Source: a virus (lineage: Duplodnaviria; Caudoviricetes). Taken from it: a stretch of DNA of 55,965 nucleotides. Position numbers and translations under genes: made by a program. The DNA lies in the IMG/VR virus record IMGVR_UViG_3300033149_001514, positions 1 to 55,965 of that record; one strand, given 5' to 3'. The first letter of the stretch is position 1; the number at the start of each line of letters is the position of its first letter. This document shows positions 2,349 to 55,965 of this stretch, in pieces. The notes beneath the pieces were generated by a model. The model saw only the letters and a program-made list of their open reading frames with translations, had not been told where the DNA came from and made no database searches.

Positions 2349-2360
2349 CACGCCCGAAAA

Positions 2361-2402
2361 GGTGGTATAATACGGGTTGGACAAAATAGTGAGGAGAACG
2401 GG
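2361..2402 (+). promoter_or_regulatory. Extended -10 promoter plus conserved leader
   Basis: GTGGTATAATA-NN-GGTTGGACA then GGAGAACGGG; near-identical cassette at 55301-55345. Confidence 0.6.
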
Positions 2403-2522
2403 ATGAATATCAACTACCTTTTATCACTAAGCAATCCAAAGTATTACGATAGGTTGATACCCATTTCCGAAAGGGTCGTTCCGCTGGAACTTCCAGAGAT
2501 GGAGACAGAAGCATTCTTTTAG
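2403..2522 (+). CDS. Small ORF (39 aa) directly after the promoter
   Basis: GAGGAG RBS; MNINYLLSLSNPKYYDRLIPISERVVPLELPEMETEAFF. Confidence 0.45.
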   Translation: MNINYLLSLSNPKYYDRLIPISERVVPLELPEMETEAFF

Positions 2523-7803: not shown

Positions 7804-7818
7804 TGCCGAAAAGCGTTT

Positions 7819-7894: not shown

Positions 7895-7913
7895 ACCCCA
7901 CCCCTCTCACGGC

Positions 7914-8084
7914 AAGCTTAACAAATTAAGATCAAAGCTTAACAAATTAAAGCTTAACAAATTAAAGCTTAACTAATTGGGAGGGGCAACCAAGCTTAAC
8001 AAATTGAAGCTTGTAAAATTAAACCTTAACAAATTGGGCAAGCATCAACCTTAGCAAATTGAGCAACGCTAGCCTTAACAAATT
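7914..8084. repeat. Array of nine 14-bp AAGCTTAACAAATT-like repeats
   Basis: Copies at 7914, 7935, 7950, 7965, 7992, 8007, 8022, 8047, 8071; often 15-bp period. Confidence 0.9.
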
Positions 8085-8793
8085 AGGCAACCACACACGC
8101 CAAAAACCACCACCAACCCACCCAAAAAATGCCCAAAAAATCAGCGTTTTTGGGGGGCAAAAATGCGGAAAATGCCGTTTTCACCCTACGGGTGGGGGTA
8201 CAAGTTAAGTACAACCACTCCCCGTAGGGGTCGTAGCGTCCAAAAAAAAGCAAAATTGATGTAACTATCGAGCAGGTTTCATGTTACACGCTGAAAATTG
8301 CCCAAATTTTTAAGCTTCATGAAAAATCCGGCAAAACGTCAAAAATACCCGCTAGGCGGGGGGTGGCGTACCCAGCAACCCCCGCAATTGGGGTTTTTCG
8401 GCGTTAATTCAACGGTCTTATTCACCTTACAGTTTTGTTAGGTGAGCACATTTTTGGGTATTTTGAGCGGAGCGTTTTTTTACGCTCTGAAAACACCCGT
8501 CTGCGGAGGTGGTACAAGTGAGGTACAACCCGCTATATGGGGGTAAAAACGTGTTTTTTTGAGTTTAAAAAAACCGTTTTGGATAAGTATTAAAAACCCC
8601 ATAAAAATCCGCATTTTTTGGGGTTTTTACCCTTTGGCAACTACCCCTCAAAAAAACCCAAAAACCCAAAACCCCTAAAACATACCCCCAAAATACCCCG
8701 CACCTCAAAAACTACCCCCCCAAAAAGGTGTATACTGGTAGTAGGAAGCACCCACCAACCTAGCACCCCCGGCAACGGGGAAGGAGCAACAGT

Positions 8794-8895
8794 ATGAAAA
8801 CCAATTTTGCCAGCCAAGTTTTAGTAGCCATTTTGTTAGTAGGAGCATTGGCAATTGTGTTTTTACCTGAGCTTATGAAAATGCTTTTTGGGTAA
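8794..8895 (+). CDS. 33-aa single-pass membrane peptide, first gene of the early operon (not in ORF track)
   Basis: AAGGAG RBS; MKTNFASQVLVAILLVGALAIVFLPELMKMLFG. Confidence 0.6.
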   Translation: MKTNFASQVLVAILLVGALAIVFLPELMKMLFG

Positions 8896-8940
8896 AAACC
8901 AACCAACCACCAACCAACCAAAATTAGCAAGGAGTAAAAA

Positions 8941-9159
8941 ATGAACAAGGCATACCCCACGTACACAAAATTGAGCGCAACCTTTGCCGCCAATAAACGC
9001 AAAGCGGTGGCATACCTCACCAACCGTACCCAATATACCCCCCAGCAAATTAACATTGAGTTTATTTATGCGGACAGCGTGTGGGGATGGGTGGAGAACG
9101 GGGGCAGTTTTGTTGTAAGTTTTGAGCAGAGCAAGGCGGTGGGCGTGGATTGGTTATAG
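8941..9159 (+). CDS. Early hypothetical protein
   Basis: AAGGAG RBS. Confidence 0.7.
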   Translation: MNKAYPTYTKLSATFAANKRKAVAYLTNRTQYTPQQINIEFIYADSVWGWVENGGSFVVSFEQSKAVGVDWL

Positions 9160-9260
9160 GTTGAAGCAGGGGGGGGTTTTAAGCACCCCCCCCAAGCACC
9201 AGCCCACCAACCCACCCACCAACCAACCAATCAATTTTTAAGAGCCCTAGGAGGCTAAAA

Positions 9261-15378: not shown

Positions 15379-15581
15379 TGCTTGCATTTACATTCGAGGA
15401 CGAGGGCAAGACGTGGATTATTACCCCCATAATACGCTGGAAACAGTATCGCAATCCAGAAGACCCTGCGGTACTTGCGTCAGAATGGGGAGTAAAATTA
15501 CAACAATACTGCTATAATGAGAAAGACCCCGAAGATGGACAGTGGTTCGATATAAACACGGAGGGATATAATGAGCCTTAA
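15378..15581 (+). CDS. Hypothetical protein
   Basis: TAATG coupling. Confidence 0.55.
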   Translation: MLAFTFEDEGKTWIITPIIRWKQYRNPEDPAVLASEWGVKLQQYCYNEKDPEDGQWFDINTEGYNEP

Positions 15582-15870
15582 TAAATATTCCAGGCTGATT
15601 GGCGACGAGGTGGTTCATCATAAAATCATGCCAGAAATTATGTACGAAAAACCAGAACTTCACGAACTGGTCGGAATAGTGCGCAAGCGCAAGGGATTGT
15701 CTCAGGCCGAGCTTGCGGAGAAGTCCGGCGTGAGCCGCAACTCTATTGCCAAGTTCGAGCGGGGAGAGACAGCCCCGCAGTTGGAGACGGTGATAAAAAT
15801 ATTGGAAGCATTGGACTACGAAATGGGCGGTGATGAAATCCTGCTCCTATCCGGTTATTTGAGTAACTAA
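15571..15870 (+). CDS. XRE-family HTH transcriptional regulator
   Basis: RKRKGLSQAELAEKSGVSRNSIAKFERGE. Confidence 0.9.
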   Translation: MSLNKYSRLIGDEVVHHKIMPEIMYEKPELHELVGIVRKRKGLSQAELAEKSGVSRNSIAKFERGETAPQLETVIKILEALDYEMGGDEILLLSGYLSN

Positions 15871-16093: not shown

Positions 16094-16576
16094 ATGTTAG
16101 AGCACTCACAGGGAATAGGACAGGCGTTTGAAGATGCTGTTATGTGGGAAGCGAAAGCGTCTGGTATCTATGTCATAAAACAGCACCCCGAAACCGTTTT
16201 TGTAGCAAAAGGGCAGGGTAGGGTTACGGGGAAAGCATGGGTTGACTTTATTGGCATTTATAAAGGTCTCGCTTTCACATTCGATGCCAAAACCACAATC
16301 AATAAACGAAGCTGGAAACCACCAAAAAAATTTGAACACCAATACTGGAACATGAAAGACGCAAGCCCCCACATGCCTTGCTTTTATTTGATTGAGTGGC
16401 GGTATTACGGGCAGGTGGAATTGTTTCTTGTACGCCCTTATAGCCCCTACCCGTTCTATTGTCGTTATGGACAGGGAAATTATAAAGTAAACTCGCTGAG
16501 CAGTGGCTGGTTTGGAGCAATTATCGAAACGGCATTTAGATTTTATGACGGAGGGTATGATGGAATCTCGGACTAA
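16094..16576 (+). CDS. recU: RecU-like Holliday junction resolvase
   Basis: GQAFE...VDFIGIYKG...FDAKTT, PD-(D/E)xK pattern typical of RecU. Confidence 0.75.
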   Translation: MLEHSQGIGQAFEDAVMWEAKASGIYVIKQHPETVFVAKGQGRVTGKAWVDFIGIYKGLAFTFDAKTTINKRSWKPPKKFEHQYWNMKDASPHMPCFYLIEWRYYGQVELFLVRPYSPYPFYCRYGQGNYKVNSLSSGWFGAIIETAFRFYDGGYDGISD

Positions 16577-17318
16577 TTTGCTGGACAAGGCACAGGAGAT
16601 AGACGGAGAACAATTACGAATTATTTATGTGCGGTTAGACGACCTCACATTTTGGGCTGATAATCCCAAAAAGCACGATATAGATGGGCTGATTGAGAGT
16701 ATGCTTATGCACGGGTTCAGGGATGCTCCAATATTTGACGATAAACTCAATGACGGAAAAGGGGGCATTGCGGGGGGGAATGGCAGGCTGGAAGCTCTTA
16801 TGGTTATGTATGAGGGGGGGCATCACGACCCGCCAAGGGGAATATTATTGGATAAAGACGATGGTATGTGGTGTATGCCAATTCAATTCGGTATCAATGC
16901 CGAATCGGAAGAACTTGCGGAAGCCTTTGCGGTAGACCATAATAACTTAACGCTTGGCGGTTCGGGTCTTGGGGCGGTAGATATAGCCCTGCTGTGGAAT
17001 GACGATTATCCTGTATTGCTGGAAAAGCTGGATACCAAGAATGTGGTTTCCATTACCGATGAAGATATGAAAATTCTACGGCGGTGGCAAAAACCGCCGA
17101 GCCTTAAAGACTTGGAAGGCGAATTGGGCGAAGATGTGGAAGGGGAGGATGACCCAATGCTGTCGTTCAGGGTTAGCAGGGAATTGTACGAATTGTTTTG
17201 GGGAATAATTGGGCGTGGAACAAACGAAGAAATGAGAGAATCCCTTACTCATGTGCTAAAGGTATACGAGGAAGTGAAGGATGATTATCCAAGAAAGACC
17301 AATGAAGATACTGATTAG
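16557..17318 (+). CDS. ParB/Srx N-terminal domain protein
   Basis: DNPKKHD...ESMLMHGF...IAGGNGRLEAL...DHN. Confidence 0.75.
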   Translation: MMESRTNLLDKAQEIDGEQLRIIYVRLDDLTFWADNPKKHDIDGLIESMLMHGFRDAPIFDDKLNDGKGGIAGGNGRLEALMVMYEGGHHDPPRGILLDKDDGMWCMPIQFGINAESEELAEAFAVDHNNLTLGGSGLGAVDIALLWNDDYPVLLEKLDTKNVVSITDEDMKILRRWQKPPSLKDLEGELGEDVEGEDDPMLSFRVSRELYELFWGIIGRGTNEEMRESLTHVLKVYEEVKDDYPRKTNEDTD

Positions 17319-18213
17319 TTATGCGTATTTTCAGAAGGTGGATTTAGAAGCGGTAATACAAAGGGCGTTTGGAGACAACAGACCCATTATTTTTGCGGAC
17401 AGCGGGGCTGTGACCGCTTTTACTAGAGGAAAGAAAATATCGGTACAGGAATATTCGGATTGGCTTTTAAAATGGAAGCACCTGTTCTCGGTGTACGCCA
17501 ATTTGGACGTTCTAACAAATGTGCAAGAAGGATTGGATAATTTGCAGTATATGGAAAGTCGTGGGTTAGACCCCCTGCCTGTATTTCACTCTAGTGAAGA
17601 CTTTGCCATTCTGGAAGCCTTTTTGGATAAGTACGATTATGTCGCTCTTGGAGGCGTGGCTATGAATTACCGCACTTCCGCAGACTTTTTAAAACGGTGG
17701 TTTCTAAAATGTTTCAAGCTGGCGGAAGCTACCAATACCCGCATACATGGTTTTGGAATATCGGCTTGGGATATTCTCAAAATGTTTCCTTGGTTTTCGG
17801 TGGATAGTTCTACTTGGGGCGGCGGTTTCCGTTTCGGAGGAGTGCCTTTATTTAATCCAGACAAAGGCACATTTCAGACTATTCAGTTAGGCAATCGAAA
17901 GAAGGTATATAAGAACGCAGAAATAATTAAGCGGTACGGGTTCGACCCTGAAGAATTTGCAGACAGAGAAAAAAACACCCGCAGTGCCAATGCTTCCCTC
18001 TCCGCTTTGTCTTATATGCTGGCAGAGGAATGGCTGTGGAAATATTGGGGTAAAGAACAGCCGAGATATTATATGGCAGATTCCGCTTCCGGCATGGAAA
18101 ATTTTAGGCTTGCCCAGCAAGGTATTTCTATATTTTTGGTAGAGGTAAGACAGGAAATGGGTGATATAAAATGCTTGGAGGACAGAAAGAGAAATTGCAG
18201 TAATAGCAATTGA
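17302..18213 (+). CDS. dpdA: TGT-fold DNA deazaguanine transglycosylase (DpdA-like)
   Basis: FADSGA, ANLD, PVFH, ALGG, IHGFG, SVDSSTW motifs; adjacent to que genes. Confidence 0.78.
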   Translation: MKILISYAYFQKVDLEAVIQRAFGDNRPIIFADSGAVTAFTRGKKISVQEYSDWLLKWKHLFSVYANLDVLTNVQEGLDNLQYMESRGLDPLPVFHSSEDFAILEAFLDKYDYVALGGVAMNYRTSADFLKRWFLKCFKLAEATNTRIHGFGISAWDILKMFPWFSVDSSTWGGGFRFGGVPLFNPDKGTFQTIQLGNRKKVYKNAEIIKRYGFDPEEFADREKNTRSANASLSALSYMLAEEWLWKYWGKEQPRYYMADSASGMENFRLAQQGISIFLVEVRQEMGDIKCLEDRKRNCSNSN

Positions 18214-18242
18214 CATTTTGAGCTTAGCGAAGGAAGGGATGG

Positions 18243-18524
18243 ATGATTATAGCGGTTGATATTGATGGCATTTTGACTTTAGAAAAGGATGGTCACGATT
18301 ATGAAAACAGAACTCCTAACCCCATTGCCCGAACTTTTTTGTTTCAGGAAATAAAAAAAGGAAATTCGATTTTGTATTACACCGCCCGACCTGAAATGGA
18401 CAGGGCTGTCACTATAAGATGGTTAGAAAAGCATGGCTTTCCTAATGCCCCGTTATTTATGGGTAAGCCACAGGCAGACTTCTACGTAGATGACAAGGCA
18501 GTGAGAGGATTTGATGAAATATGA
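18243..18524 (+). CDS. Minimal HAD-family phosphatase
   Basis: DIDGIL, YTAR, GKP, YVDDK motifs. Confidence 0.8.
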   Translation: MIIAVDIDGILTLEKDGHDYENRTPNPIARTFLFQEIKKGNSILYYTARPEMDRAVTIRWLEKHGFPNAPLFMGKPQADFYVDDKAVRGFDEI

Positions 18525-19171
18525 AAAAAATAGTGCTTCTGTATTCAGGAGGAATGGACAGTCTCATAGCTTATCGCTGGTATCACGAACCCGAAACACT
18601 TTACGTAAATTTAGGCACTCGGTACGCTGGGGCGGAAATAGAAGCTGTCAAGAAAACCCTACCAGATACAACCATCATAAATATCCCCGAGATGGGAAGG
18701 TTTGAACTGGACAATGCTCACTTTCCCGGCAGGAATAGTTTGCTGGCTTGGTGCGGTGCAAGTGTAGGGGGCGTGCGAATTATCTTGGTCACACAGAAAG
18801 GGGAAATGACTGGCACTAAGGATAGGACAAACGCCTTTTTTAAGCAAATCAGCCATCACCTTTCTTATGTATTCGAGAGGGAAATAATTGTAGAGACCCC
18901 GTTTGCCAATATAGATAAGACCGAAATGGTGGAGTGGTATTTAAAATCTGGCGGGGAATTAGACTTATTATATAAGACCATAGGGTGCTACCGAGGAGCA
19001 CAAAGACCATGTGGTAATTGCTCGGCTTGCCTGCGCAGATACGTTGCTTTTATGAATAACGGTCTCGACCCGCAATTTCAACTATCACAGGAGATAAAAA
19101 TCATCTACCGAAAGAAGTTACACACTTATCCAATATATAGACAAAAAAGGATGCTACGATGGCTGACCTGA
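18521..19171 (+). CDS. queC: QueC-family ATP pyrophosphatase (preQ0 synthase-like)
   Basis: SGGMDS PP-loop, PGRN, CGNCSAC zinc site. Confidence 0.85.
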   Translation: MKKIVLLYSGGMDSLIAYRWYHEPETLYVNLGTRYAGAEIEAVKKTLPDTTIINIPEMGRFELDNAHFPGRNSLLAWCGASVGGVRIILVTQKGEMTGTKDRTNAFFKQISHHLSYVFEREIIVETPFANIDKTEMVEWYLKSGGELDLLYKTIGCYRGAQRPCGNCSACLRRYVAFMNNGLDPQFQLSQEIKIIYRKKLHTYPIYRQKRMLRWLT

Positions 19172-19716
19172 AATTGTTAAATGTGGGATGCGGAAATGAT
19201 CTAAGAGAGGGATATTTAAATGTAGATATCTTGCCACCGCCTTTGCTTACAGGAAACATGATGTACAAAAGGGCAGACGGCGTTAATTTATTTGAAGCGG
19301 TTGGGGGTGGGTGGGATGGCATATTGTCTATTTATATGGTAGAGCATGTGCCAGTCCGTCATCTTTACACCATGTTTTATAATTGGAACAAGTGTCTAAA
19401 AATGAACGGAACTGTGCGCATTGTTGTGCCCAGTCTTGTTGCTATGATTGACCTTTACCAAGATTCCAGCCCGTTAGACCTATCTGTTTTCAGGCGGTTA
19501 ATTTACGAGGGTATGGGCGGGCCAGAAGAAACAGGGGTAAGCCCTCACACTGCATTATGGACGGTTGAATGGTTGGAACATTTTATGACCGCAGAAGGGT
19601 TTAACCTAACCCAGTATAAAGACAAAGTCGGAAGCCACTGCCTTGGGCTTGTGGCTGAATTTGTTAAGGTTACTGATTCCAATACTACCGAGGACGAAAA
19701 TATATGGGTCTGGTAA
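19159..19716 (+). CDS. Class I SAM-dependent methyltransferase
   Basis: LNVGCG, LNVD, VEHV, LKMNGTVRIVVP. Confidence 0.85.
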   Translation: MADLKLLNVGCGNDLREGYLNVDILPPPLLTGNMMYKRADGVNLFEAVGGGWDGILSIYMVEHVPVRHLYTMFYNWNKCLKMNGTVRIVVPSLVAMIDLYQDSSPLDLSVFRRLIYEGMGGPEETGVSPHTALWTVEWLEHFMTAEGFNLTQYKDKVGSHCLGLVAEFVKVTDSNTTEDENIWVW

Positions 19717-20678
19717 AAGCAGAAATACTATGGACAAGAAAGTGTCCGCTGTCTTGCTCGTATTGTGCCATGCCAAACGACACGGAACGAGCACCTGTCG
19801 CAAGCATGATTGCAGGATTATCCAACCTTAAAGAATTGGGAGTTGGTTTTATAGCCATATATGGGGCTTCTCCGCTTTACGACTTTGAGGGGTTGCCAGA
19901 ATATATCAAGGCTGCTGAAGACATGGATATATTAACTACCGTTATTACAGACGGGGTTCAAGCAGGGCATCGTGGATTACTTGAAGAACTTTATGATAGC
20001 GGATTGCGGTCACTTACCATGTCTTACGACTTTGTTCCTTACGATAATGCTTCACGAATCAAAACAGGCAGGGCTTTTGCTCTTGTGGATTGGTGGCTGG
20101 GGTTGCCTGATATCAGAGATGTCGAAATTGTAGCAACCGTAACGAGCGAAAATTACGACACGATTATAAATGCTCTTCCCCAAATTTTTATGAATTATCC
20201 AAAGTTGTATTTTAGTTTTGATTTTGTCCATTTTGACCGCATGAACCCCGGAACAAAATGCAAGGGGCAGGCAAACGACTTGGCTCTAACCAACCAGATG
20301 GTAGCCGATTTTTGTAATGCCATGTTGGAATTCAAAATAGTAAAGGATTTTAACATTCATGCTTCTCTGGACGTGCTAAGAAAATTTGCTGACAACCCAA
20401 CCATAGTGACCGAGTATTCTTGGTCATGTGCCACCGACAATTTTCCAAGTTGGGTGACCATTGACGCCGATGGAACGGTGTTGCCCTGTGATGATTTTCA
20501 TGTAGACCGCTCTCTTAAAGTATGGGATATTGACGAACTAAAATGGACATTGTGGAAGCACAGAAACAAAAAAGACGTAGAAGATTTTTGCAACGGGTGT
20601 GCTTGGAACACTCATATTGATGCCGACCTTATCAAAGGCGGTCAAGTCTCTTTTTTGGGATACGTTCACAAGGAATAA
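19704..20678 (+). CDS. Radical SAM protein with Twitch/SPASM-like C-terminus
   Basis: CPLSCSYC; WSC...IDADGTVLPC...CNGC. Confidence 0.88.
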   Translation: MGLVKAEILWTRKCPLSCSYCAMPNDTERAPVASMIAGLSNLKELGVGFIAIYGASPLYDFEGLPEYIKAAEDMDILTTVITDGVQAGHRGLLEELYDSGLRSLTMSYDFVPYDNASRIKTGRAFALVDWWLGLPDIRDVEIVATVTSENYDTIINALPQIFMNYPKLYFSFDFVHFDRMNPGTKCKGQANDLALTNQMVADFCNAMLEFKIVKDFNIHASLDVLRKFADNPTIVTEYSWSCATDNFPSWVTIDADGTVLPCDDFHVDRSLKVWDIDELKWTLWKHRNKKDVEDFCNGCAWNTHIDADLIKGGQVSFLGYVHKE

Positions 20679-20679
20679 A

Positions 20680-22026
20680 ATGTGCGGAATTTACGGAGGT
20701 TTTGCCTTTAACAATAGGGGCATGATTATTATTAAATCTTTCAAAAGCAGGTTGGAAGAAACAGCCCGATTGCGGGGCAGGGATGGTCATGGCAGGTTCG
20801 AGTTCAAGAACGGATATATAGGGGTGTCGAGAGCACAACCCTTGCCGGAAGGCGAGGAAATTCCCCTGCCGCTAAAACACGATGGGCTGGTAATGGTTTT
20901 CAATGGAACAATATCAAACGACAAGGAATTAGCGGAAAGGCACGGGTTTGATAGGGAGTCCGTAGATACTTGGACGGCTATTCGGTTGTGGAGCAAAAAA
21001 GGGTTGGATGCGTGTGAGGAGTTCGTTGGTGGTTACGCTTTTGGGGTATACGATGAAGTGACCGAAACGCTTACAGTGGCAAAGAATTTTAAGACACTGT
21101 GGTATGTGCTAACTGATGACTGCTTTTTGTTTGCCAGCGAAAAGGAATTTTTAGAAACAGACGATAGCAAATTCGGGCGATATGTACCAAGTCGTTTCCC
21201 ACAGAATACCGGATTGGTGGTAAATGAGACCTCCCATCGGGAACGGTCTCTGTCTAGAAAATATTGGTCTCATACACCAGATTTAGACAATAACAAGGCA
21301 GTCATCGTAACCAGTGGGGGAATAGATTCTATCACCTCCGCTTATATAGCCAAGTTTGTTCACAAAAAAGAAATTGCGCTGATAAACTTCGATTATGGAC
21401 AGTTAGCCAGCGAGCGTGAATGGGAAGCCGTTAAATATGCAGGGGAGTCAATAGGATGCCCCTGCTTGCAGGTAGACTTATCGCTCCTAGGTGCTTGGGG
21501 AGCAAGCCCGCTAACAGACCCGACCATAGAATTGCCGTTGGGAATGAAGTCGGCAGAAAGCACATTATGTTGGACGCCAGCGAGGAACATGCTGATGATA
21601 GCTTATGCCAGCGCATACGCCGAAGCTCATGGGATAAAATACATTTATTTTGGAAATAACATGGAGGAAGAAGCAACAGGATATTCCGACAACGATTTAG
21701 AATTTATCTACCTGTATAACCAGCTTCTGGACTACGGCACACTCAAAGGAATAAAAATAAAGCGGGCATTGGGTAGGCTTATGAAGCCGGAAATTTTACA
21801 GGTAGGGGCATACTTGGGGGTGGACTACGACAGGACGTGGTCGTGTGATTTAGGCGGAGAAAAACCGTGTGGGGTATGCGGATGTTGTACTACCCGCCAA
21901 TATGCTTTTAAACGGGCTAATTTGCCCGATGGTCAGACTTACGAAAACCCCCTGCAAGATATTTATCCTTGGGAGGGGCATAAGGAATATGACGTGGAGG
22001 AATTACTTGACAGATTACACGATTGA
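20680..22026 (+). CDS. gat-queC: Glutamine amidotransferase (class II)-QueC fusion, Gat-QueC
   Basis: N-terminal MCGI nucleophile, RGRDG, FNG; then SGGIDS, PARN, CGVCGCC. Confidence 0.9.
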   Translation: MCGIYGGFAFNNRGMIIIKSFKSRLEETARLRGRDGHGRFEFKNGYIGVSRAQPLPEGEEIPLPLKHDGLVMVFNGTISNDKELAERHGFDRESVDTWTAIRLWSKKGLDACEEFVGGYAFGVYDEVTETLTVAKNFKTLWYVLTDDCFLFASEKEFLETDDSKFGRYVPSRFPQNTGLVVNETSHRERSLSRKYWSHTPDLDNNKAVIVTSGGIDSITSAYIAKFVHKKEIALINFDYGQLASEREWEAVKYAGESIGCPCLQVDLSLLGAWGASPLTDPTIELPLGMKSAESTLCWTPARNMLMIAYASAYAEAHGIKYIYFGNNMEEEATGYSDNDLEFIYLYNQLLDYGTLKGIKIKRALGRLMKPEILQVGAYLGVDYDRTWSCDLGGEKPCGVCGCCTTRQYAFKRANLPDGQTYENPLQDIYPWEGHKEYDVEELLDRLHD

Positions 22027-22888
22027 ATTAGACGGGGATTTCAAGTTTATTGTTCTCACCTTAACAAGGCGTTGCCCGTTGCGGTGTTCTTATTGCAATT
22101 ATGCCAGAAACGATATGCCGGAAATGCCGTTGGAGTTTTGGATAAGCGTGCTTGATAAATTTCCAAATGCAGAATATGTGCTTTTTGGTGGTGACCCTGT
22201 TGAGTATAAACATTTTTGGGATTTGTTGGAAATAATGAATAAAAGAGAGACGGGATATACTGTATCGACAACGGGCATAAATTTACAAGATGAGGATTTT
22301 GACAAAATGGTTTCTGTAAGTGTATCGCTGGATACGCTGGATACAAAAATCACGAAGCCGGAGCACAGGAAAAGCATACGGGGCTGGGAGGTGGTATTGC
22401 TCAGAAAAGAAAATCCAAAGGGTGTAGATTTTGCGGGTATTACCATGACCAAGGACAACATAAACGAGATGCCTTTTTTGGCGGAGAGTTTGCGAGACAC
22501 GACCTTCTTAGGGTGTTTCAATGTGGTTCAAACCAAGACGGAATTAGGCAAAGACACCGACTTAAAACCAACCCGTAAGCAGTTGGAAAAGTTTGTTGAA
22601 TTTGTTAAGGAAACCTATCATTGGGGAGTGTACGCAGACCCGTTAGAGTTCTACGAATTATTGCCTACCAAAGGGATTGCGCAGGACTGGTTTTGTAAGG
22701 GGGAAGTTCTTTTGACCGTAGACAGTGATGGCACGGTAGCCCCGTGCTATCAAGTAAAATCCAACGGGCACACGATGGCAGACTACAAGCACGCCCAGAA
22801 ATGCGAGGGGTGCTTTTTAAATTGTTTTTGGGTGTGGACAGAAATGCCTCAATTTTGTATATGTCAGCAAGGAGAAAAAAATGTTTGA
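21989..22888 (+). CDS. Second radical SAM protein with Twitch/SPASM-like C-terminus (alternative TTG start at 22007)
   Basis: CPLRCSYC, GGDP; WFC...VDSDGTVAPC...CEGCFLNC. Confidence 0.88.
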   Translation: MTWRNYLTDYTIELDGDFKFIVLTLTRRCPLRCSYCNYARNDMPEMPLEFWISVLDKFPNAEYVLFGGDPVEYKHFWDLLEIMNKRETGYTVSTTGINLQDEDFDKMVSVSVSLDTLDTKITKPEHRKSIRGWEVVLLRKENPKGVDFAGITMTKDNINEMPFLAESLRDTTFLGCFNVVQTKTELGKDTDLKPTRKQLEKFVEFVKETYHWGVYADPLEFYELLPTKGIAQDWFCKGEVLLTVDSDGTVAPCYQVKSNGHTMADYKHAQKCEGCFLNCFWVWTEMPQFCICQQGEKNV

Positions 22889-23255
22889 AATAAAAAAGAC
22901 TTTCCGGTTCGAGGCGGCTCATCGGTTGCGGAATCTGGAAGCCGGACACAAATGTGCCCGTATGCACGGACATAACTACGAGGTTACCCTGACTCTGGCA
23001 GTGGATTCAGTGCGTGAATTAGAGAATGGTTTTGTTTATGACTACGGTAAGTTAAAGCCGTTTGGCGATAAAATAAAAGCATGGTACGACCATCGGGTTT
23101 TGAACGAGGTAAAGCCCTTTGATATATACCAACCGAGTGCTGAATTTATGGCGTATGCCTTTTACAATATTGCCGTCAATTTGTGTTTCATTCCTAATGT
23201 TGTGGCGGTTGGCGTTAGTGAGACCCCCGACACCTATGCGGAGTACCGACCATGA
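22881..23255 (+). CDS. queD: 6-carboxytetrahydropterin synthase
   Basis: FEAAH, CARMHGHNY, DH, SAE, VSET. Confidence 0.93.
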   Translation: MFEIKKTFRFEAAHRLRNLEAGHKCARMHGHNYEVTLTLAVDSVRELENGFVYDYGKLKPFGDKIKAWYDHRVLNEVKPFDIYQPSAEFMAYAFYNIAVNLCFIPNVVAVGVSETPDTYAEYRP

Positions 23256-23866
23256 GCGAATATCAAGTTATTGATATGTTTAATAGCATTCAGGGCGAAG
23301 GTACTTACCAGACAGGGCTTTGGTGTACCTTCATCCGGTTGGCTGGCTGTGATATTGGTTGCGAATGGTGTGACACGAAAGAAAGTTGGAGCAAAGCCAA
23401 TGGTATAAAGATGACCGCCAAGGAAATTGCCGAAAAGGTTACCGCAAAGGCAGTTGTTATTACGGGTGGCGAACCGACATTATGGGATTTAGACCCGTTA
23501 TTAAAAGAGCTGTCGAACTTCAACTATTATGTTATGCTGGAAACAAGCGGGTATCACGCTTTGCGAGGCGAAAGGACACCGCAATGGATTACGGTTAGCC
23601 CCAAGTTCGCAGTTGACTATCAAATAAACGCACAATGGTATGATTTAGTTGCAGAGTGGAAATGGGTCGTGGATGAAAATTTTGACCTTAAAAGGGCTGT
23701 TGCATACGAGGACAAGAGTCGCATTATATCCCTTGTCAGTTTAATGCCAGAGGGAAGCCCGCCCAAGCCGGAGAACATAAATCTTGCCCTCGAAATACTG
23801 GAAAGTGTGAATAAATTAAATTGGCATTACTCACCGAGAATTCAATATAGGATAGGTGTCAAATGA
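23252..23866 (+). CDS. queE: 7-carboxy-7-deazaguanine synthase
   Basis: SIQGEG, RLAGCDIGCEWCDT, TGGEP, ETSG, VSPK. Confidence 0.93.
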   Translation: MSEYQVIDMFNSIQGEGTYQTGLWCTFIRLAGCDIGCEWCDTKESWSKANGIKMTAKEIAEKVTAKAVVITGGEPTLWDLDPLLKELSNFNYYVMLETSGYHALRGERTPQWITVSPKFAVDYQINAQWYDLVAEWKWVVDENFDLKRAVAYEDKSRIISLVSLMPEGSPPKPENINLALEILESVNKLNWHYSPRIQYRIGVK

Positions 23867-24432
23867 ACGTAGATAAGACAAAAATCAAAGTAGCAACTGA
23901 AATGCTGTTAGAGGCTTTGGGGGAGGACTTATCCAGAGAAGGTTTGAAAGATACTCCCATGCGAGTAGCAAATGCGTGGGAGGAATTTTTACAGCCGGAC
24001 GAAAAGCTTAATACCACCTTCCAAGAAATAAAAGTAAATTCCATGATAATGGTTCGTGGCATTACTGGCTGGTCTTTTTGCGAGCATCACATTATTCCAT
24101 TTTCGTATGTGGCAACGGTGGGATATATTCCAAAGGAAAAGGTTCTTGGGTTGTCAAAAATTCCAAGGGTGGTTCGTCACGAAGGCAGACGGTTGAGAAC
24201 CCAAGAAACCATGACAAGGGATATTATTGACCATCTTAAAAATTTGACAGAGACGGAAGATATAGCTGTCCGGTTAGAGGGCGTTCATTTGTGTATGGTA
24301 ATGCGGGGAGTAAAGGCTCAGGGGGCGAGCATGGTTACTCAGGAATTATCCGGTGCTTTTATGGATGACGGGGTAGTAAGAAATGAATTTATGATGATGG
24401 CGGATTCTCATGGTTTACTATTGCAACCGTAG
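23863..24432 (+). CDS. folE: GTP cyclohydrolase I
   Basis: GLKDTPMRV, CEHHIIPF, GLSK, HLCMVMRG. Confidence 0.95.
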   Translation: MNVDKTKIKVATEMLLEALGEDLSREGLKDTPMRVANAWEEFLQPDEKLNTTFQEIKVNSMIMVRGITGWSFCEHHIIPFSYVATVGYIPKEKVLGLSKIPRVVRHEGRRLRTQETMTRDIIDHLKNLTETEDIAVRLEGVHLCMVMRGVKAQGASMVTQELSGAFMDDGVVRNEFMMMADSHGLLLQP

Positions 24433-52417: not shown

Positions 52418-52450
52418 ACAAAACCCCCTGCCAGCGCAGGGGGTTTTGTT
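52418..52450. terminator. Bidirectional intrinsic terminator
   Basis: ACAAAACCCCCTGC-CAGC-GCAGGGGGTTTTGT between convergent operons. Confidence 0.88.
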
Positions 52451-52548: not shown

Positions 52549-53148
52549 TTATCCCTTTCGTTCCTTTATAGCCTTATTGAGTTCCTGTAAGGCGTTGTCG
52601 AGGTGCTGTTCTTCTTTCTCGGTAATACCGCCCTGAAACTGGTCTTGGTTCTCAATTACTTTGCGTACAGCGTCACGCAAACGGGAGACCGCTTCTGTAA
52701 AAATTGGGCTTGCTGGCGGGTTTATTTGCCTTCTCAATTCAGCGGCTGTCCACCCGTTGTCAATGGCTTTCTGTTGCCACTTCCGTTGCTCGGCGGGGGG
52801 CAATGGGGCTACGACCTGTAAGTGTGAGAAAGACAAGTCTCCAATGCGGTCTTCATAAGCAACTCGCTTCATGGTGCTGGCGCAGTTGGCAACATGACCA
52901 TATGACTTTTCCCCGAACACGTTCAGGGCTTGTGAATATCTTTCCCCGAATGTGCCTTCCCCAATGTTTACCCAATCCCCAATACATTTAGCAAGGCTCT
53001 CGTCAATAAAAGCCAGTGCATAGCCAAGTTGCTCCCATTCTTCATAAGACGGCGGGGCTTCTATTTTCAACCCTTTCTCGGTGATTTGATACCAGTCGTT
53101 CTTCGTTTTGAGTGTGGGGTGTTCTGACGATACTATTTCCTTTGACAT
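52549..53148 (-). CDS. LmbU-like DNA-binding protein
   Basis: IGDWVNIGE..FGERY, LSFSHLQVVA, W..KA..NGWTAAELRRQI. Confidence 0.6.
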   Translation of the reverse strand: MSKEIVSSEHPTLKTKNDWYQITEKGLKIEAPPSYEEWEQLGYALAFIDESLAKCIGDWVNIGEGTFGERYSQALNVFGEKSYGHVANCASTMKRVAYEDRIGDLSFSHLQVVAPLPPAEQRKWQQKAIDNGWTAAELRRQINPPASPIFTEAVSRLRDAVRKVIENQDQFQGGITEKEEQHLDNALQELNKAIKERKG

Positions 53149-53251
53149 CTTTTTTCTTCCTTTGCGGTATATATCCGCAATATGAACATGGCTGGTCGGG
53201 GTAATATTGCCACCAATACAACCCGCATTGACATTTGATATTACGTAGCAT
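53042..53251 (-). CDS. Possible small zinc-binding protein
   Basis: CQCG...CSYCG; starts at the dnaC stop but overlaps the next gene by about 100 bp. Confidence 0.35.
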   Translation of the reverse strand: MLRNIKCQCGLYWWQYYPDQPCSYCGYIPQRKKKDVKGNSIVRTPHTQNEERLVSNHRERVENRSPAVL

Positions 53252-54106
53252 TTAATCATCCTTATAAGGTAACTTTAGTCTTAGGTCTTCACCCAATATA
53301 GGAATAATCTTTCCGGCAGAAAACCGAGATACGATTCCTTTCATGGGTTCTGCAATTTCTACTAACTCATCAGGTGTACGGTTGCTGACTGCAAAGGTGG
53401 TTAGTCCTTTCTGGAATCGGGTGTTTATAATATCGAAAAACTTCTCATCTACCCAACTTGTGAATTTTACCCTGTCCAACTCATCAATAGCCAATACCTT
53501 GACCCCTTCGTATTTCTTTTGAATTTTATGCTGGTCGTCCGTGTCGTAGCTTTCTCTTATGTCTGCTAGCATTTTGGCACTGGTCGTATACAGGGCATGA
53601 ATACCCCTCACCCGATAACCATTCACCAAAGCAAATAAGAGGTGCGTCTTGCCTGTGCCGTTATCCCCAACAAACAGGGCTGTTGCCACCGGAACATTCT
53701 GAATTAATTTATTAGCAAATAGCCATGCCTGTTCTTGTCCTTTTTTGGGTGAACCAAGCGCAACCGTCAATGCTGGTTGCCCGTCTAGTGTTAGCGTGTC
53801 CAAGCCACAGTTATATCGTAGCCAGTTGGATAAAGCGTCTGCGTTGCATACGGGGCATGGGGCTGAGATTAGTCTTGCCTTGGATTTAAAATCATCCCCG
53901 CCAGTGGTGGGGAAATACTTTTCGATTCCCTCTTTATGGTTTATTTCCCATGCAAAAAGCGTACCGCCATCAAGCTTTGTGCTGTTGCAATTCTGACAAG
54001 CTTTCTGTAATGGCTGGTCAAAGATTACTGGTATGAGTTGCCCTTCTCTAGGTGTTCCTTTTTTGTATAGATTGTCTATCCAGTGTGACGGGTATCTAAT
54101 GTCCAT
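53252..54106 (-). CDS. DnaC/IstB-like helicase loader
   Basis: CPVC, GDNGTGKT, LAIDEL, SN, SRF. Confidence 0.87.
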   Translation of the reverse strand: MDIRYPSHWIDNLYKKGTPREGQLIPVIFDQPLQKACQNCNSTKLDGGTLFAWEINHKEGIEKYFPTTGGDDFKSKARLISAPCPVCNADALSNWLRYNCGLDTLTLDGQPALTVALGSPKKGQEQAWLFANKLIQNVPVATALFVGDNGTGKTHLLFALVNGYRVRGIHALYTTSAKMLADIRESYDTDDQHKIQKKYEGVKVLAIDELDRVKFTSWVDEKFFDIINTRFQKGLTTFAVSNRTPDELVEIAEPMKGIVSRFSAGKIIPILGEDLRLKLPYKDD

Positions 54107-54118
54107 GCGTCCGTTCTC

Positions 54119-55003
54119 CTATTGATATTTCCGTAGGCTTGCCAAGATTGCTTCCTCTCGTTTCTTTCTGTTAGTCTCCCCCGCCCCATTTCCGTTGCGG
54201 TGGTACGCTAACTCGCTGGTAAAATTATTCAGCAACGATTTGGGGCTTGAAATTGTTAAACGGTCTTTCTTCATACGGTTTATAATTTTCCGGTTCAACT
54301 CCTTTACTAATTCTATGTCCTTTTGCAAAATTGCTGTTGAGGTTGGGTCTGGTTCTTGATTGTTGTCCAGCAGTCTTGCCATTATGGTCTGTTTTAGCAT
54401 TTGCTTAAACGGGTCTCGCCATAAAACATAAACGCCGCTTGGTTTATCGTTCCAATCGGGAGGTAATATATTGGTCTGTTCGCAAAAATGTTCTTCAAGT
54501 GTCTCGGCTACCGCATTGGGTAGTTTGAAGTTTTTCTTTTCAGTGGCGGGCGTAATTTTATTTAAACTTTTTTTAATAATACCATTATCTTTATTTTCTT
54601 TAATACTCCTTTGGTTTGCTAAAGTTTCTTTAGTGGTATTACTAAAATTTCTTGTGTTATCATCCTCGGCTATTACTAAAGATTCTTTAGTTGAAAGGTC
54701 GATAGCCATGTCTCTATTCAAGGAATATACAAAGCCTTTTCCTTTCTTTTTTCTGATAATTATTTCTCTGTCTAGGGCTTGGGCGAGAGCTTTAATAATA
54801 GTGGGCTGGGTGAGACCTGTTAGTTTTTCATATTGCTTTAAGGTTATGTCGGTTTCGTTGCGGTGATAGCCTTTTGTTAATCTTATTGTGACTTGAATCA
54901 CTACCCAAGTTGAGGGGGCTACTGTTGGTAATATGTGGTCTATTGCGTAATTGGAAACCTGCGTGTAGGGTACTTCTCTAAAAGGGTATACAGTGTTGTC
55001 CAT
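54119..55003 (-). CDS. Replication initiator (lambda O/replisome-organiser-like)
   Basis: YTQVSN, IRLTKGY, wHTH LTGLTQPTIIKAL; internal iterons; upstream of loader. Confidence 0.8.
   Translation of the reverse strand: MDNTVYPFREVPYTQVSNYAIDHILPTVAPSTWVVIQVTIRLTKGYHRNETDITLKQYEKLTGLTQPTIIKALAQALDREIIIRKKKGKGFVYSLNRDMAIDLSTKESLVIAEDDNTRNFSNTTKETLANQRSIKENKDNGIIKKSLNKITPATEKKNFKLPNAVAETLEEHFCEQTNILPPDWNDKPSGVYVLWRDPFKQMLKQTIMARLLDNNQEPDPTSTAILQKDIELVKELNRKIINRMKKDRLTISSPKSLLNNFTSELAYHRNGNGAGETNRKKREEAILASLRKYQ
54618..54691. repeat. Three 17-bp palindromic iterons, putative origin
   Basis: GCTAAAGTTTCTTTAGT, ACTAAAATTTCTTGTGT, ACTAAAGATTCTTTAGT next to an AT-rich tract at ~54530-54610. Confidence 0.65.
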
Positions 55004-55083
55004 CGTTCTCCATTTAACTAAGATTGGTATGGGTGAAATGTATTGTAATGGAAGGTCGCAGAAAATACAACAATCCCAACCTT

Positions 55084-55232
55084 AAAAATTCAGAGAACCG
55101 AGCGAGTGAGTTCTCGGTTCTCTAAAGGAGGAAATGAAAAGAAAGTTTGGGGCTGTCGCAAGAGAGTGGACGGCTCTCTTATAAATCGTTGGAGAACGGG
55201 GGGTTTTAATAAGCCCCTCGACAGCCCCAACT
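55084..55232 (-). ncRNA. Putative structured regulatory small RNA or leader
   Basis: Own promoter, 12-bp closing stem, two inner hairpins, terminal 11-bp hairpin plus U run. Confidence 0.55.
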
Positions 55233-55238
55233 ATTAGA

Positions 55239-55267
55239 AGTATAGACTAACAGCACCTATTTGGCAA
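55239..55267 (-). promoter_or_regulatory. Sigma70-type promoter for the sRNA/replication operon
   Basis: TTGCCA-17 bp-TATACT on the minus strand. Confidence 0.72.
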
Positions 55268-55300
55268 GAGCAAAGCTTAAAATTTTCCGCACCCCCTAAA

Positions 55301-55345
55301 AGTGTGGTATAATATAGGTTGGACAGTATAAAAGGAGAGAACGGT
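55301..55345 (+). promoter_or_regulatory. Divergent extended -10 promoter plus conserved leader
   Basis: GTGGTATAATA-TA-GGTTGGACA...GAGAACGG; matches 2361-2402. Confidence 0.6.
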
Positions 55346-55567
55346 ATGGGCATACAGCGTATGAAAGATTTAGCAAGGCGTGAAGCCAAGAGGGCAAAGC
55401 TCATCAAGGCGTGTAACGAAAAGCACTCGCTTGTTGATGAATGCCCCGACCCGATGGACAACCGCCGAACCTTAAGAAAGTACCACGAAGAAGCATTTGG
55501 CAAAGTGCTTTATCCATGCGAGAAGTGTGGGTGCTATGCTTACAGAAAGGATGGTGACAATGAGTAA
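55346..55567 (+). CDS. Small zinc-ribbon protein
   Basis: AAGGAG RBS; CEKCG. Confidence 0.6.
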   Translation: MGIQRMKDLARREAKRAKLIKACNEKHSLVDECPDPMDNRRTLRKYHEEAFGKVLYPCEKCGCYAYRKDGDNE

Positions 55568-55766
55568 GATGTGGGAAGTGGAAGTGCCAGCCAAAGACCT
55601 AGAATCTAATGACGTATTCTACCGAAACAATTTTAAATTTATAGTACGGGAGGTGAAACCAGACAAGCACTTTATAACAGCAACGTGCATAAGCCCCGCA
55701 TTAGGCAAGGAGGTTAACGTACATATTAATAAAGACGCAACTGTAACTGTTGAACGATTTGCTTAG
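55560..55766 (+). CDS. Hypothetical protein
   Basis: Overlapping operon packing. Confidence 0.55.
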   Translation: MSKMWEVEVPAKDLESNDVFYRNNFKFIVREVKPDKHFITATCISPALGKEVNVHINKDATVTVERFA

Positions 55767-55779
55767 AAAGGAGTGAAAA

Positions 55780-55941
55780 ATGAAAGGATTGAAACCCGCA
55801 GGATATTTTATATTTATGGTGGCATTTGGGTTCTGGACAAAAGCCCAAGCAGAAAGCGTGCTGGTCGCTTTTCTAATTACCCTGACCGTTGGCTTGGTGC
55901 TGGGGTATGCGCTGGTAAAGGATTTAGAATATGGTGGCTAG
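55780..55941 (+). CDS. Small membrane protein (53 aa, not in ORF track)
   Basis: AAAGGAG RBS; two hydrophobic segments. Confidence 0.55.
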   Translation: MKGLKPAGYFIFMVAFGFWTKAQAESVLVAFLITLTVGLVLGYALVKDLEYGG

Positions 55942-55965
55942 CAGGCGGTTTAGCATTGTGGTATT

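Follow-up and report, generated by a model that had tools for sequence, protein, structure and literature searches.

The stretch of DNA analysed here, in the following called the window, is the entire IMG/VR record IMGVR_UViG_3300033149_001514 (Caudoviricetes) with a length of 55,965 nt and an estimated completeness of 84%. A replication operon encoding an O-like initiator, a DnaC-like loader and an ORF of unknown function is located on its minus strand and ends at a bidirectional terminator near 52420-52450. Upstream of the initiator gene, beyond a spacer of 80 nt, lies the terminator of a predicted RNA encoded on the same strand, and a divergent early promoter on the plus strand follows behind the promoter of this RNA. 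The coordinates of all features are given in Table 1. The iterons within the initiator gene, judged by their arrangement beside an A+T-rich stretch, probably mark a lambda-type origin; a replication origin at 55084-55267 was considered and rejected, since the origin-like iterons were found inside the initiator gene instead.

The ribosome binding sites (RBS) of the phage are of the Firmicute-like GGAGG type. An XRE-type HTH protein (15571-15870) and a protein with a ParB-like domain (16560-17318) are encoded in the window. In the PHROGs scan, which covered 40 of the approximately 92 ORFs, all of them outside 25-52 kb, neither an integrase nor another lysogeny gene was seen, and no antirepressor or C1-type system was identified among the ORFs scanned. 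With no lysogeny gene in this subset of a contig estimated to be 84% complete, the immunity role that had been suggested for the RNA in an initial annotation of the locus is unsupported.

Table 1. Features of the predicted RNA, its complementary sites and the neighbouring operons
Feature	Position	Strand	Description
RNA promoter	55239..55267	-	-35 TTGCCA 55267-55262, 17-nt spacer, -10 TATACT 55244-55239
Predicted RNA, ~150 nt	55084..55232	-	Stem P1, hairpin 1, weak CUCC-loop hairpin, hairpin 2, CU-rich linker, terminator
Specific anti-RBS segment CCCCCCGUUCUCCA	55190..55203	-	In multiloop; CUCC tetraloop 55194-55191
Hairpin 2	55159..55181	-	AAGAGAG / CUCUCUU stem, CCGUCCA loop 55173-55167
Single-stranded linker UUUCUUUUCAUUUCCUCCUUU	55124..55143	-	Generic anti-SD CCUCC and anti-AUG CAU; complement of AAAGGAGGAAAUGAAAAGAAA
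UUCCUCCUUU	55133-55124	-	In pyrimidine tail; position confirmed
Intrinsic terminator (predicted)	55084..55126	-	Arms 55126-55113 / 55102-55089, 14 bp, 10-nt loop, UUUUU 55088-55084
Initiator RBS target TGGAGAACG (listed also as UGGAGAACG)	55012-55004	-	9 nt complementary, directly before AUG 55003
Loader RBS target GGAGAACGG	54119-54111	-	9 nt complementary to RNA
Gene 2403 leader target GGAGAACGGG	2393-2402	+	Exact string confirmed
Gene 55346 leader target GAGAACGG	55337-55344	+	Exact string confirmed
Divergent early promoter and leader	55299..55348	+	TGGTATAAT (extended -10), GGTTGGACA, GAGAACGG, then ATG of 73-aa ORF
Second promoter and leader copy	2357..2405	+	GGAGAACGGG before 39-aa ORF heading SbcD/SbcC block
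Downstream operon	52549..55003	-	Initiator, loader, 236-aa ORF
O-like initiator	54119-55003	-	Start codon backed by alignment with P0002
DnaC-like loader	53252-54106	-	Gene annotation
236-aa ORF of unknown function	52549-53259	-	Last gene of replication operon
Likely origin	54554..54692	.	Three dyad-symmetric 19-nt iterons 54616-54691 beside A+T-rich stretch, inside initiator gene

Predicted transcription unit

The promoter of the RNA is of the sigma-70 type with 10/12 consensus matches and is the best of three promoter-like sites in 54000-55965, a region for which 3.5 such sites are expected and which is thus not enriched in them. Judged by the promoter spacing, transcription would start at A55232 or G55231. 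The distance between the end of the -10 hexamer and the first paired base of the fold amounts to 7-8 nt, which places the promoter in register with the 5′-end.

At the other end, the terminator hairpin has a folding energy of -20.6 kcal/mol; it was omitted by the terminator scan due to the fact that its 10-nt loop exceeds the loop limit of 8 used in the scan. No antiterminator that is mutually exclusive with this hairpin was found: with the 3′ arm held open, the best partner of the 5′ arm was a pairing of 6 bp with -8.0 kcal/mol. The weakness of this competing pairing argues for release of the RNA and against a switch of the riboswitch type, and the possession of its own terminator suggests that the RNA ends by termination and not by processing of a longer transcript. 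Between the terminator and the initiator ATG, the consensus scan detected no site with at least 9/12 matches; the best site found by eye in this spacer, TTGTAT-17-TACAAT, has 8/12. The only strong promoter upstream of the entire minus-strand operon is that of the RNA itself.

The analysis supports a promoter-to-terminator unit for a predicted, highly structured RNA of ~150 nt directly upstream of, and on the same strand as, the initiator and loader genes. Every sequence feature given in the initial annotation was recovered at its position, namely the minus-strand promoter TTGCCA-17-TATACT, a closing stem of 12 bp, a hairpin with the loop CCGUCCA, and a pyrimidine tail followed by a terminal hairpin with a U run, the stem of which measures 14 bp and precedes UUUUU.

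Predicted fold of the RNA

The minimum free energy (MFE) of the RNA is -59.4 kcal/mol (z -7.57), and none of 200 shuffled sequences was equally stable. In a GC-corrected scan of 152-nt windows on both strands the locus ranked first of 5,582 for structure, with the exact minus-strand RNA at -3.46 SD. The closing stem P1 consists of 12 bp (55230-55219 with 55158-55147, 100% complementary) and is extended to 14 pairs in the MFE structure. The plus strand of the locus folds as well (-64.9, z -6.5), about equally to the minus strand, and the strand assignment of the RNA therefore comes from the promoter and the U run only. In the fold of a 276-nt read-through leader the structure of the RNA is kept, and no stable pairing with the initiator RBS is formed.

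Three segments with anti-RBS character differ in their predicted exposure. The loop of hairpin 2 is fully exposed, with an opening cost of 0.0. The linker CAUUUCCUCCUUU is predicted to be single-stranded as far as the terminator stem, with unpaired probabilities of ~0.9 or higher. The multiloop segment CCCGUUCUCCA is present as annotated, where it had been taken to be unpaired, but it is predicted in a weak 4-bp hairpin (CGUU/AACG with CUCC loop), so that half of the specific seed lies within this hairpin, inside the multiloop closed by the 14-bp stem; opening of CCGUUCUCCA costs 2.9 kcal/mol.

Other readings of the locus were rejected. As to protein coding, a 46-aa ORF on the minus strand (55090-55230) has no Shine-Dalgarno (SD) sequence, and a 16-codon ORF on the plus strand is preceded by AAAGGAGG at a distance of only 2 nt from the ATG. 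A riboswitch or an attenuator with alternative pairing has neither an Rfam match nor an antiterminator pairing beyond the one described above.

Complementarity to ribosome binding sites

The multiloop segment CCCGUUCUCCA shows exact complementarity over 8-10 nt to four ribosome sites, those of the three genes nearest to the RNA (initiator, loader and gene 55346) and that of the leader of gene 2403, and the complementarity spans positions -14 to -1 of these start sites. The matches proposed for all four RBS regions were thereby confirmed as exact. By duplex energy of the segment alone, the four targets rank 1, 2, 4 and 6 of 91 start regions.

Across the window, complementarity to the RNA of at least 8 nt occurs in 12/92 RBS windows (shuffle mean 7.2; 206/2000 shuffles reach 12) and of at least 9 nt in five (2.0 in shuffles; 168/2000 reach 5). 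Genome-wide, 22 10-mer matches were counted in comparison to 13.0 expected, a number reached by 66/1000 shuffles. The longest match, of 13 nt, was equalled in 165/1000 shuffles; it is located at 9092, within a small ORF and away from start sites. The RBS complementarity is thus real and weakly above chance, with marginal values of about 0.07-0.10 in unbiased shuffles. The 12 windows (of 92) that reach at least 8 nt include those of all three genes nearest to the RNA, for which our own hypergeometric arithmetic, C(12,3)/C(92,3), gives 0.0018.

The proposed specific seed is the CGUUCUCC segment; in a generic model the RNA would act through the CCUCC linker. The motif GGAGAACG occurs in nine copies where 1.44 are expected, a count reached in 0/100 shuffles, and similar over-representation is seen for 47 other 8-mers of the sense transcriptome. 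Eight of the copies are in sense orientation, and the only one in antisense is that of the RNA itself. The divergent control region is flanked by four copies, arranged left-left / right-right, and further copies lie within ORFs (2686, 5014, 9093, 13383 and 28682). The distance between motif and AUG varies from 4 to 9 nt, which makes the motif look like a unit and not like the product of a spacing constraint.

When accessibility and all three exposed segments are taken into account, the loader is found at rank 13 and gene 2403 at rank 15 among 92, neither the initiator nor gene 55346 is within the top 20, and the generic CU-rich anti-SD linker dominates. Seven of the top eight in this ranking are small early-region genes (11, 614, 912, 1127, 2750, 4719 and 55780). 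Predicted energies are better for the generic linker CAUUUCCUCCUUU than for the specific segment; a pairing between the multiloop and a second strand would cross the closing stem, a configuration that RNAcofold cannot represent.

Duplicated plus-strand leaders and a proposed second pairing site

The two plus-strand leaders keep three blocks, namely the -10 region, GGTTGGACA and GAGAACGG, and differ in the intervening spacers. No enrichment of GGTTGGACA was found in the window (14 matches at up to one mismatch, 12.7 expected). An origin of the RNA gene as an inverted duplication of a leader was rejected, as alignment similarity is present solely at GAGAACGG.

TGGAC is found at 2378 and 55320, and both initiator and loader begin with ATGGAC, as had been noted. 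In the proposed bipartite pairing, the first site has 8-10 nt of exact complementarity in four leaders. The second site, GUCCA/UGGAC, comprises only 5 nt; in the plus-strand leaders it is positioned 7-11 nt past the -10 hexamer and so coincides with the likely start of the transcript or precedes it, and in initiator and loader UGGAC is downstream of the first site instead of upstream, i.e. in reversed order.

Searches for relatives and known RNA families

No match was obtained by blastn of 54900-55400 against the phage collection or of 55004-55345 against plasmids. A tblastn search of the initiator against phages gave six Acinetobacter phage records with ~25% identity over approximately one third of the protein; the loader gave 34 records, none of which reached 60% identity or 80% coverage, and the terminase one remote record. 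The closest homologue of the initiator, P0002, has 54-56% identity and is encoded on a contig of 1,263 bases, and the next best has 42% or less. Locus searches with the initiator alone, with a 14-sequence alignment or with the terminase yielded no confirmed relative, and neither did an alignment of window and P0002 in viral, metagenome and genome collections.

Pattern searches were performed as well. The 17-mer of the seed gave no match as a DNA pattern. At least 116 loci were returned by a two-motif pattern and three by a promoter-leader pattern; the latter three come from a single unrelated phage that lacks the RBS tag. With E values up to 1 allowed, the covariance model R1 recognised none of these 119 loci. 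A three-motif pattern returned six metagenome and 11 genome loci, none of which matched R1 at E up to 10. R1 was built from a single sequence and hence has little reach. By sequence comparison, the phage and the predicted RNA are without a relative among the collections searched.

No Rfam family, C4, IsrK and csRNA included, was matched at gathering thresholds in a search of the whole window, and known families of riboswitches, leaders or antitermination elements were likewise without a match. When E values up to 10 were allowed for 54950-55400, only csRNA, TYMV_upPK, FsrA, lysM-TM7 and sR52 were reported, all far below threshold. The csRNA (RF02379) alignment scored 20.5 bits against a gathering threshold of 57 (E 2.8) and FsrA 15.1 against 80, both on the linker part.

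Proposed mechanism and alternative explanations

The reading preferred here, with a probability of roughly 40%, is translational repression of early and replication genes by a terminator-ended RNA that derives from the replication operon leader. The ~150-nt structured RNA would constitute the 5′ leader of the operon, started at ~55232 by the sigma-70-type promoter, and most transcripts would stop at the hairpin and U5 terminator (55126-55084), giving a stable RNA with its 5′-end buried in the 14-bp stem. The initiator-loader mRNA might be supplied by read-through or from a weak promoter in the 80-nt spacer. Once released, the RNA would expose three accessible elements, the CUCC tetraloop in CCCGUUCUCCA, the CCGUCCA loop and the single-stranded CAUUUCCUCCUUU linker, and could pair in trans with translation initiation regions and thereby block ribosome binding. 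The RNA would act preferentially on the sites tagged with GGAGAACG(G), which are those of initiator, loader and the leading ORF of each of the two duplicated early operons on the plus strand, so that replication and early-gene expression might be limited or timed. A bolder form of this reading, in which the RNA stands in place of a protein repressor at the divergent control region, recognises the GGAGAACG(G) tag and together with its own terminator keeps early expression and replication switched off or restrained, would amount to an independent evolution of the P4 CI / P1 C4 type of logic, with an unrelated RNA fold and in a phage with Firmicute-style signals; this is judged unlikely.

Put- and EAR-like logic, in which an RNA element modifies RNA polymerase, is one form that a purely cis-acting 5′-UTR could take. 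In such a leader the levels of initiator and loader would be set by read-through of the terminator, either basal or driven by an RNA element or by an antitermination factor of phage or host, and the RBS complementarity would be incidental. The arrangement of promoters fits this explanation, as the spacer holds no site of at least 9/12 and the RNA's own promoter is the only strong one upstream of the operon; a lambda-type origin within the initiator gene would, by analogy to lambda, also gain from transcription entering the gene. It is nevertheless considered somewhat unlikely, given that the competing pairing is far weaker than the terminator (-8.0 vs -20.6 kcal/mol), that no match to a known family of riboswitches, leaders or antitermination elements was obtained, that the read-through fold keeps the RNA structure without stable pairing to the initiator RBS, and that the three exposed anti-RBS elements would be left unexplained. 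The full exposure of the linker, its lead in the accessibility ranking with the predominance of small early-region genes at the top, and the position of the sub-threshold csRNA and FsrA alignments would all suit a generic, csRNA-type anti-SD RNA acting through CAUUUCCUCCUUU on many purine-rich start sites of phage and/or host, with no special role for the GGAGAACG matches. A CU-rich sequence, however, pairs with any strong SD and carries little specificity, a shuffled RNA being nearly as good; the spacing within the linker implies an SD just 2 nt from the AUG, unlike real start sites, and the conserved GAGAACGG block of the duplicated leaders would have no explanation. Such a generic mode of action is therefore judged unlikely.

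Pairing of RNA would not be needed at all if GGAGAACGG were the recognition site of a protein (a translational repressor, a nuclease or a DNA-binding regulator) and the inverted repeats acted at DNA level or were incidental. The excess of motif copies, their symmetrical placement around the control region and the copies inside ORFs, where it is not obvious what an anti-RBS RNA would do, are in line with this; yet all eight copies outside the RNA are in sense orientation, which a DNA site does not require, they cover ribosome sites and not -35/-10 elements, and the locus that ranks first for structure in the contig, together with its promoter and terminator, is left unaccounted for, which makes a protein site very improbable. 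That no stable transcript and no function exist, and that hairpins, promoter-like site and terminator-like hairpin came together by chance in a divergent intergenic region, agrees with the unenriched number of promoter-like sites. The structural rank of 1/5,582 with z -7.57, and the register of promoter, 5′ stem and U run on one strand, speak against such a coincidence, and it is regarded as quite improbable.

Comparison with known regulatory RNAs

To our knowledge, phage small RNAs that control replication or early genes of their own phage are known in a small number of Gram-negative systems. The CI RNA of P4 is described in PMC4825925 as being cut from a longer transcript and as pairing with seqA and seqC, which causes premature transcription termination. 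The arrangement described there is shared by the predicted RNA in that it is located in the untranslated leader of a replication operon, on the same strand, and is complementary to sequences further down the unit (PMC4825925). Unlike P4 CI, it ends at its own predicted intrinsic terminator and its complementary sites are ribosome sites; the GGAGG ribosome sites are Firmicute-like, no lysogeny gene was found among the ORFs scanned, and there is no IsrK-related Rfam match. Membership in the C4 and IsrK (P4 CI-like) Rfam families is not supported, as neither matched at gathering thresholds or at E up to 10.

C4 antisense RNA uses pairing at two sites and exerts polarity onto downstream genes. In P1/P7, C4 regulates ant together with Icd, according to PMC8201110. 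The predicted RNA would resemble C4 in logic: encoded in the same region, it would act in trans at the ribosome site of an operon's first ORF and could in this way silence downstream genes. It differs from C4 by the lack of a covariance match even at E up to 10, by a second site of 5 nt at the predicted mRNA 5′-end and by the absence of an identified antirepressor/C1-type system.

The csRNAs are expressed from CiaR-dependent promoters (with a CiaR box) in streptococcal genomes. Their architecture, as given in PMC3091779, comprises a 5′ stem-loop, an unpaired anti-SD and CAU anti-start sequence and a terminator hairpin. This order is also seen in the predicted fold here, with 5′ structure, unpaired anti-SD/anti-AUG and terminator. 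Unlike csRNAs, the RNA is phage-encoded and lies in a replication-operon leader, and its multi-branch 5′ domain of ~90 nt carries a second, specific anti-RBS segment; with 20.5 of 57 bits it is not a member of the family. OOP of lambda is, according to the 2025 review PMC12197685, a small phage RNA beside replication genes which lowers a phage regulator by pairing. The predicted RNA likewise adjoins replication genes and would down-regulate by pairing. Unlike OOP, which is encoded on the strand opposite to its target and is fully complementary, it is co-directional with the operon and has short complementarities in trans.

The literature searches brought up no leader RNA that precedes an O-like initiator gene in the same direction in a phage of Gram-positive type, and the terms 'Gram-positive' and 'Bacillus' are absent from the searched passages of the review (PMC12197685), Supplementary Table S1 of which is stated there to contain 38 phage small RNAs without known function. 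With a short exact seed and four candidate targets, the proposed repression would be unusually easy to test. If true, a phage lineage for which no cultured or sequenced relatives were found would possess a simple RNA switch that terminates before the initiator gene and can mask ribosome sites of early and replication genes in its neighbourhood.

Genome context of the predicted RNA locus

The window, one viral record of IMG/VR with 55,965 bases that is classed as linear with a completeness estimate of 84%, has a G+C content of about 45%, contains no tRNA genes and carries strong ribosome sites of the GGAGG type. Nearly all genes are located on the plus strand, and the sole minus-strand block (52549-55003) contains the replication genes. 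The locus of the predicted RNA (about 150 nt, 55084-55232) lies within a gap of 342 bases, with the initiator on one side and the first plus-strand early gene on the other. In nucleotide, protein and pattern searches of phage, plasmid, viral, metagenome and genome collections, with pattern matches screened by the single-sequence covariance model R1 built from the RNA, no relatives of the phage, its replication module or the RNA were found; the one close homologue of the initiator was P0002 (54-56% identity), encoded on a short contig.

The genes at 17281-24432 form a cluster typical of 7-deazaguanine DNA modification. Credible genes are scarce in a region of about 1.8 kb (7476-9260), which contains a perfect direct repeat of 79 nt (7476-7554 and 7725-7803) ending in TTGACA, at least eight copies of AAGCTTAACAAATT within 7914-8100, numerous runs of G and of C, and tracts of the CCAACC type near 8100, 8900 and 9200. 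Further copies of AAGCTTAACAAATT are found at 12235 (immediately ahead of a ribosome site), 12700 and 19660 (inverted).

Features of the window and elements of the predicted fold
Feature	Position or size	Strand	Remarks
Leader copy	2357-2405	+	heads 39-aa ORF, 66-aa four-cysteine protein, SbcD/SbcC
7-deazaguanine cluster genes	17281-24432		queuine tRNA-ribosyltransferase (DpdA-like), two QueC-like/amidotransferase, two radical-SAM, QueD, QueE, GTP cyclohydrolase I
Bidirectional terminator AAAACCCCCTGCCAGCGCAGGGGGTTTTGTT	~52420-52450		between convergent plus-strand late genes and minus-strand replication block, closing the latter
236-aa protein without assigned function	third gene of 52549-55003 block	-
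DnaC-like helicase loader	53252-54106	-	PHROG 50, E 9.6e-28; Bac_DnaA/IstB ATPase
O-like replication initiator	54119-55003	-	PHROG 678, E 2.5e-9; Pfam Phage_rep_O 21.8 bits (cut-off of 28.7 not reached)
Leader copy	55299-55348	+	heads three small ORFs to contig end
Closing stem	14 pairs	-	predicted fold
Hairpin 1	GGGG/CCCC	-	predicted fold
Small hairpin	CGUU/AACG, CUCC loop	-	predicted fold
Hairpin 2	8 pairs, loop CCGUCCA	-	predicted fold
CU-rich linker	17 nt, single-stranded	-	predicted fold
Terminal hairpin	14 pairs, then UUUUU	-	predicted fold; alone -20.6 kcal/mol

Promoter, predicted fold and classification of the putative RNA

All strings and coordinates of the initial annotation proved correct when checked against the sequence. 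The minus-strand promoter TTGCCA-17-TATACT (55267-55239) agrees at 10 of 12 positions and is the top promoter-like site in 54000-55965, where such sites are not enriched (3 against 3.5 expected from shuffles); pairing in the fold begins 7-8 nt after the end of its -10 hexamer. The segment 55235-55084 was predicted to fold with -59.4 kcal/mol (z -7.57), a stability reached by none of 200 shuffles, and in a G+C-corrected scan of both strands (5,582 windows, each 152 nt long) the locus was the most structured of the contig, with terminator regions around 52400 and 9200 next. The predicted structure signal is strong. Only because of its 10-nt loop was the terminal hairpin absent from the terminator scan. 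Since the helices are all Watson-Crick, the plus strand folds too, and the minus-strand assignment rests solely on the promoter and the U run.

Nowhere in the window did an Rfam family reach its gathering score, and at E values up to 10 only csRNA (20.5 vs 57 bits), FsrA (15.1 vs 80) and three irrelevant families were reported. As no C4 or CI-type model was among these matches, membership in the C4/CI family was rejected. A coding reading of the locus was discarded, with a credible ORF on neither strand. The locus was also dismissed as replication origin: origin-like repeats are located inside the initiator gene (54554-54692), where three dyad-symmetric 19-nt iterons of the TTACTAAAGNTTCTTTAGT type adjoin an A+T-rich stretch. 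Lambda-type O genes likewise contain iterons together with A+T-rich DNA, and by this analogy 54554-54692 is probably the origin; P0002 has a tandem peptide repeat at the corresponding position.

Complementarity to ribosome sites and early leaders

The tag GGAGAACG, complementary to the multiloop segment of the RNA (55190-55203), occurs nine times in the window, where 1.44 copies are expected (0 of 100 shuffles reached nine); eight copies are sense to local genes and the ninth is the RNA's own complement. Against a third-order expectation the excess is 5-fold (8 against 1.61), and 47 other 8-mers are as over-represented. Three sense copies are at ribosome sites (initiator, loader and gene 2403, the first ORF behind one of two early leaders), and gene 55346, behind the other leader, is added through the version GAGAACGG. 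When the multiloop segment is the only seed, duplex energy places the four start regions at ranks 1, 2, 4 and 6 among 91. As this seed had been picked for its match, unbiased tests that do not presuppose a seed were run. Complementarity of at least 8 nt to the whole RNA was found in 12 of 92 start windows (dinucleotide-shuffle mean 7.2; 206 of 2000 shuffles reached 12) and of at least 9 nt in 5 (against 2.0; 168 of 2000), and 10-mer matches in the sense transcriptome numbered 22 (against 13.0; 66 of 1000). The longest complement is the 13-nt TGGAGAACGGGGG (9092-9104), a length that 165 of 1000 shuffles also attain; it is located within a 72-aa ORF (8943-9159) with a good ribosome site, and not at a start site. 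GGAGAACGGGG is also present at 5014, within the SbcC-like gene.

The two leaders on the plus strand form a diverged duplicate pair in which the blocks GTGGTATAATA, GGTTGGACA and GAGAACGG are conserved and the spacers differ, and both early promoters have an extended -10 (TGGTATAAT) without a good -35. The window shows no enrichment of GGTTGGACA. For the proposed bipartite pairing, the hairpin-2 loop GUCCA can form exactly 5 bp with UGGAC, but in both leaders UGGAC is 7-11 nt past the -10 hexamer, where it coincides with the probable transcription start or slightly precedes it, and may therefore be only partly in the mRNA. In initiator and loader it is the start codon plus the Asp codon, downstream of the first site, so that the order is not as a bipartite model needs. 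The candidate second pairing site is thus weak. In L118-L120, viral contigs that are three records of one unrelated phage, GGTATAATAAAGGTTGGACA is found ahead of a gene; it equals the -10 and initial-transcribed motif of the two early promoters here, without the GGAGAACGG tag.

Proposed function

The unit would be a self-contained small RNA gene and simultaneously the leader of the replication operon. The released RNA would have its 5' end within the long stem and the terminator hairpin at its 3' end, and would carry a specific anti-RBS segment, predicted to open at a cost of 2.9 kcal/mol, besides a 7-nt loop and an anti-SD/anti-AUG linker, both predicted to be free. We tentatively favour, at a probability of about 0.4, a repressor that would act in trans on the translation of the early and replication genes nearby and would be coupled to a terminator restricting transcription into the initiator gene, owing to the csRNA-like architecture and the P4 CI-like position. 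As described in PMC3091779, csRNAs combine 5' structure, a free anti-SD/anti-AUG linker and a terminator hairpin, and the predicted architecture here is alike; PMC4825925 describes P4 CI RNA as made from the replication-operon leader and pairing with sites in that transcript, a position which the RNA here recalls.

No promoter of at least 9/12 was found between terminator and initiator in the promoter scan (the best by eye, TTGTAT-17-TACAAT, has 8/12), so transcription of the replication genes probably relies at least partly on read-through. In the predicted 276-nt read-through leader the RNA fold is kept and the initiator site has no stable masking in cis. An alternative-pairing attenuator was rejected, with the terminator 3' arm held open and the 5' arm's only partner being 6 bp of GUUCUC/GAGAAC (-8.0 kcal/mol). 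The main rival readings are a purely cis-acting leader, less probable than the trans-acting repressor, and, less probable still, a generic anti-SD RNA to which the GGAGAACG tag is irrelevant. When opening energies were added and three exposed segments allowed, the CU-rich linker was best almost everywhere; loader and gene 2403 ranked 13 and 15 of 92, with initiator and gene 55346 below the top 20. Three features stand out nonetheless. The three genes nearest the RNA are all among the 12 complementary windows (hypergeometric 0.0018) and would pair with one and the same RNA segment. The duplicated plus-strand leaders keep their three blocks although the spacers have diverged. The tag-to-AUG distance varies from 4 to 9 nt across the four genes, so the tag is no spacing requirement. 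Measured by the criterion set in the initial annotation, the target match exceeds that of other GGAG sites only in part, and the targeting statistics are marginal.

As a working model, the trans anti-RBS logic of the initial annotation is retained in part, without its C4/CI affiliation. Its suggestion of immunity is neither supported nor contradicted: the 40 ORFs compared with PHROGs, out of about 92 and all outside 25-52 kb, include one XRE-type HTH protein and one ParB-like-domain protein but no integrase, and about 16% of the genome may be missing. In P1 C4, repression of icd/ant spreads by polarity; likewise, a block on the small ORFs that come first (39 aa at 2403, 73 aa at 55346) could silence downstream genes. 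The trans-repressor model is easy to test, and under it the RNA, whose sequence and predicted fold match nothing on record, would be a phage-encoded base-pairing small RNA.
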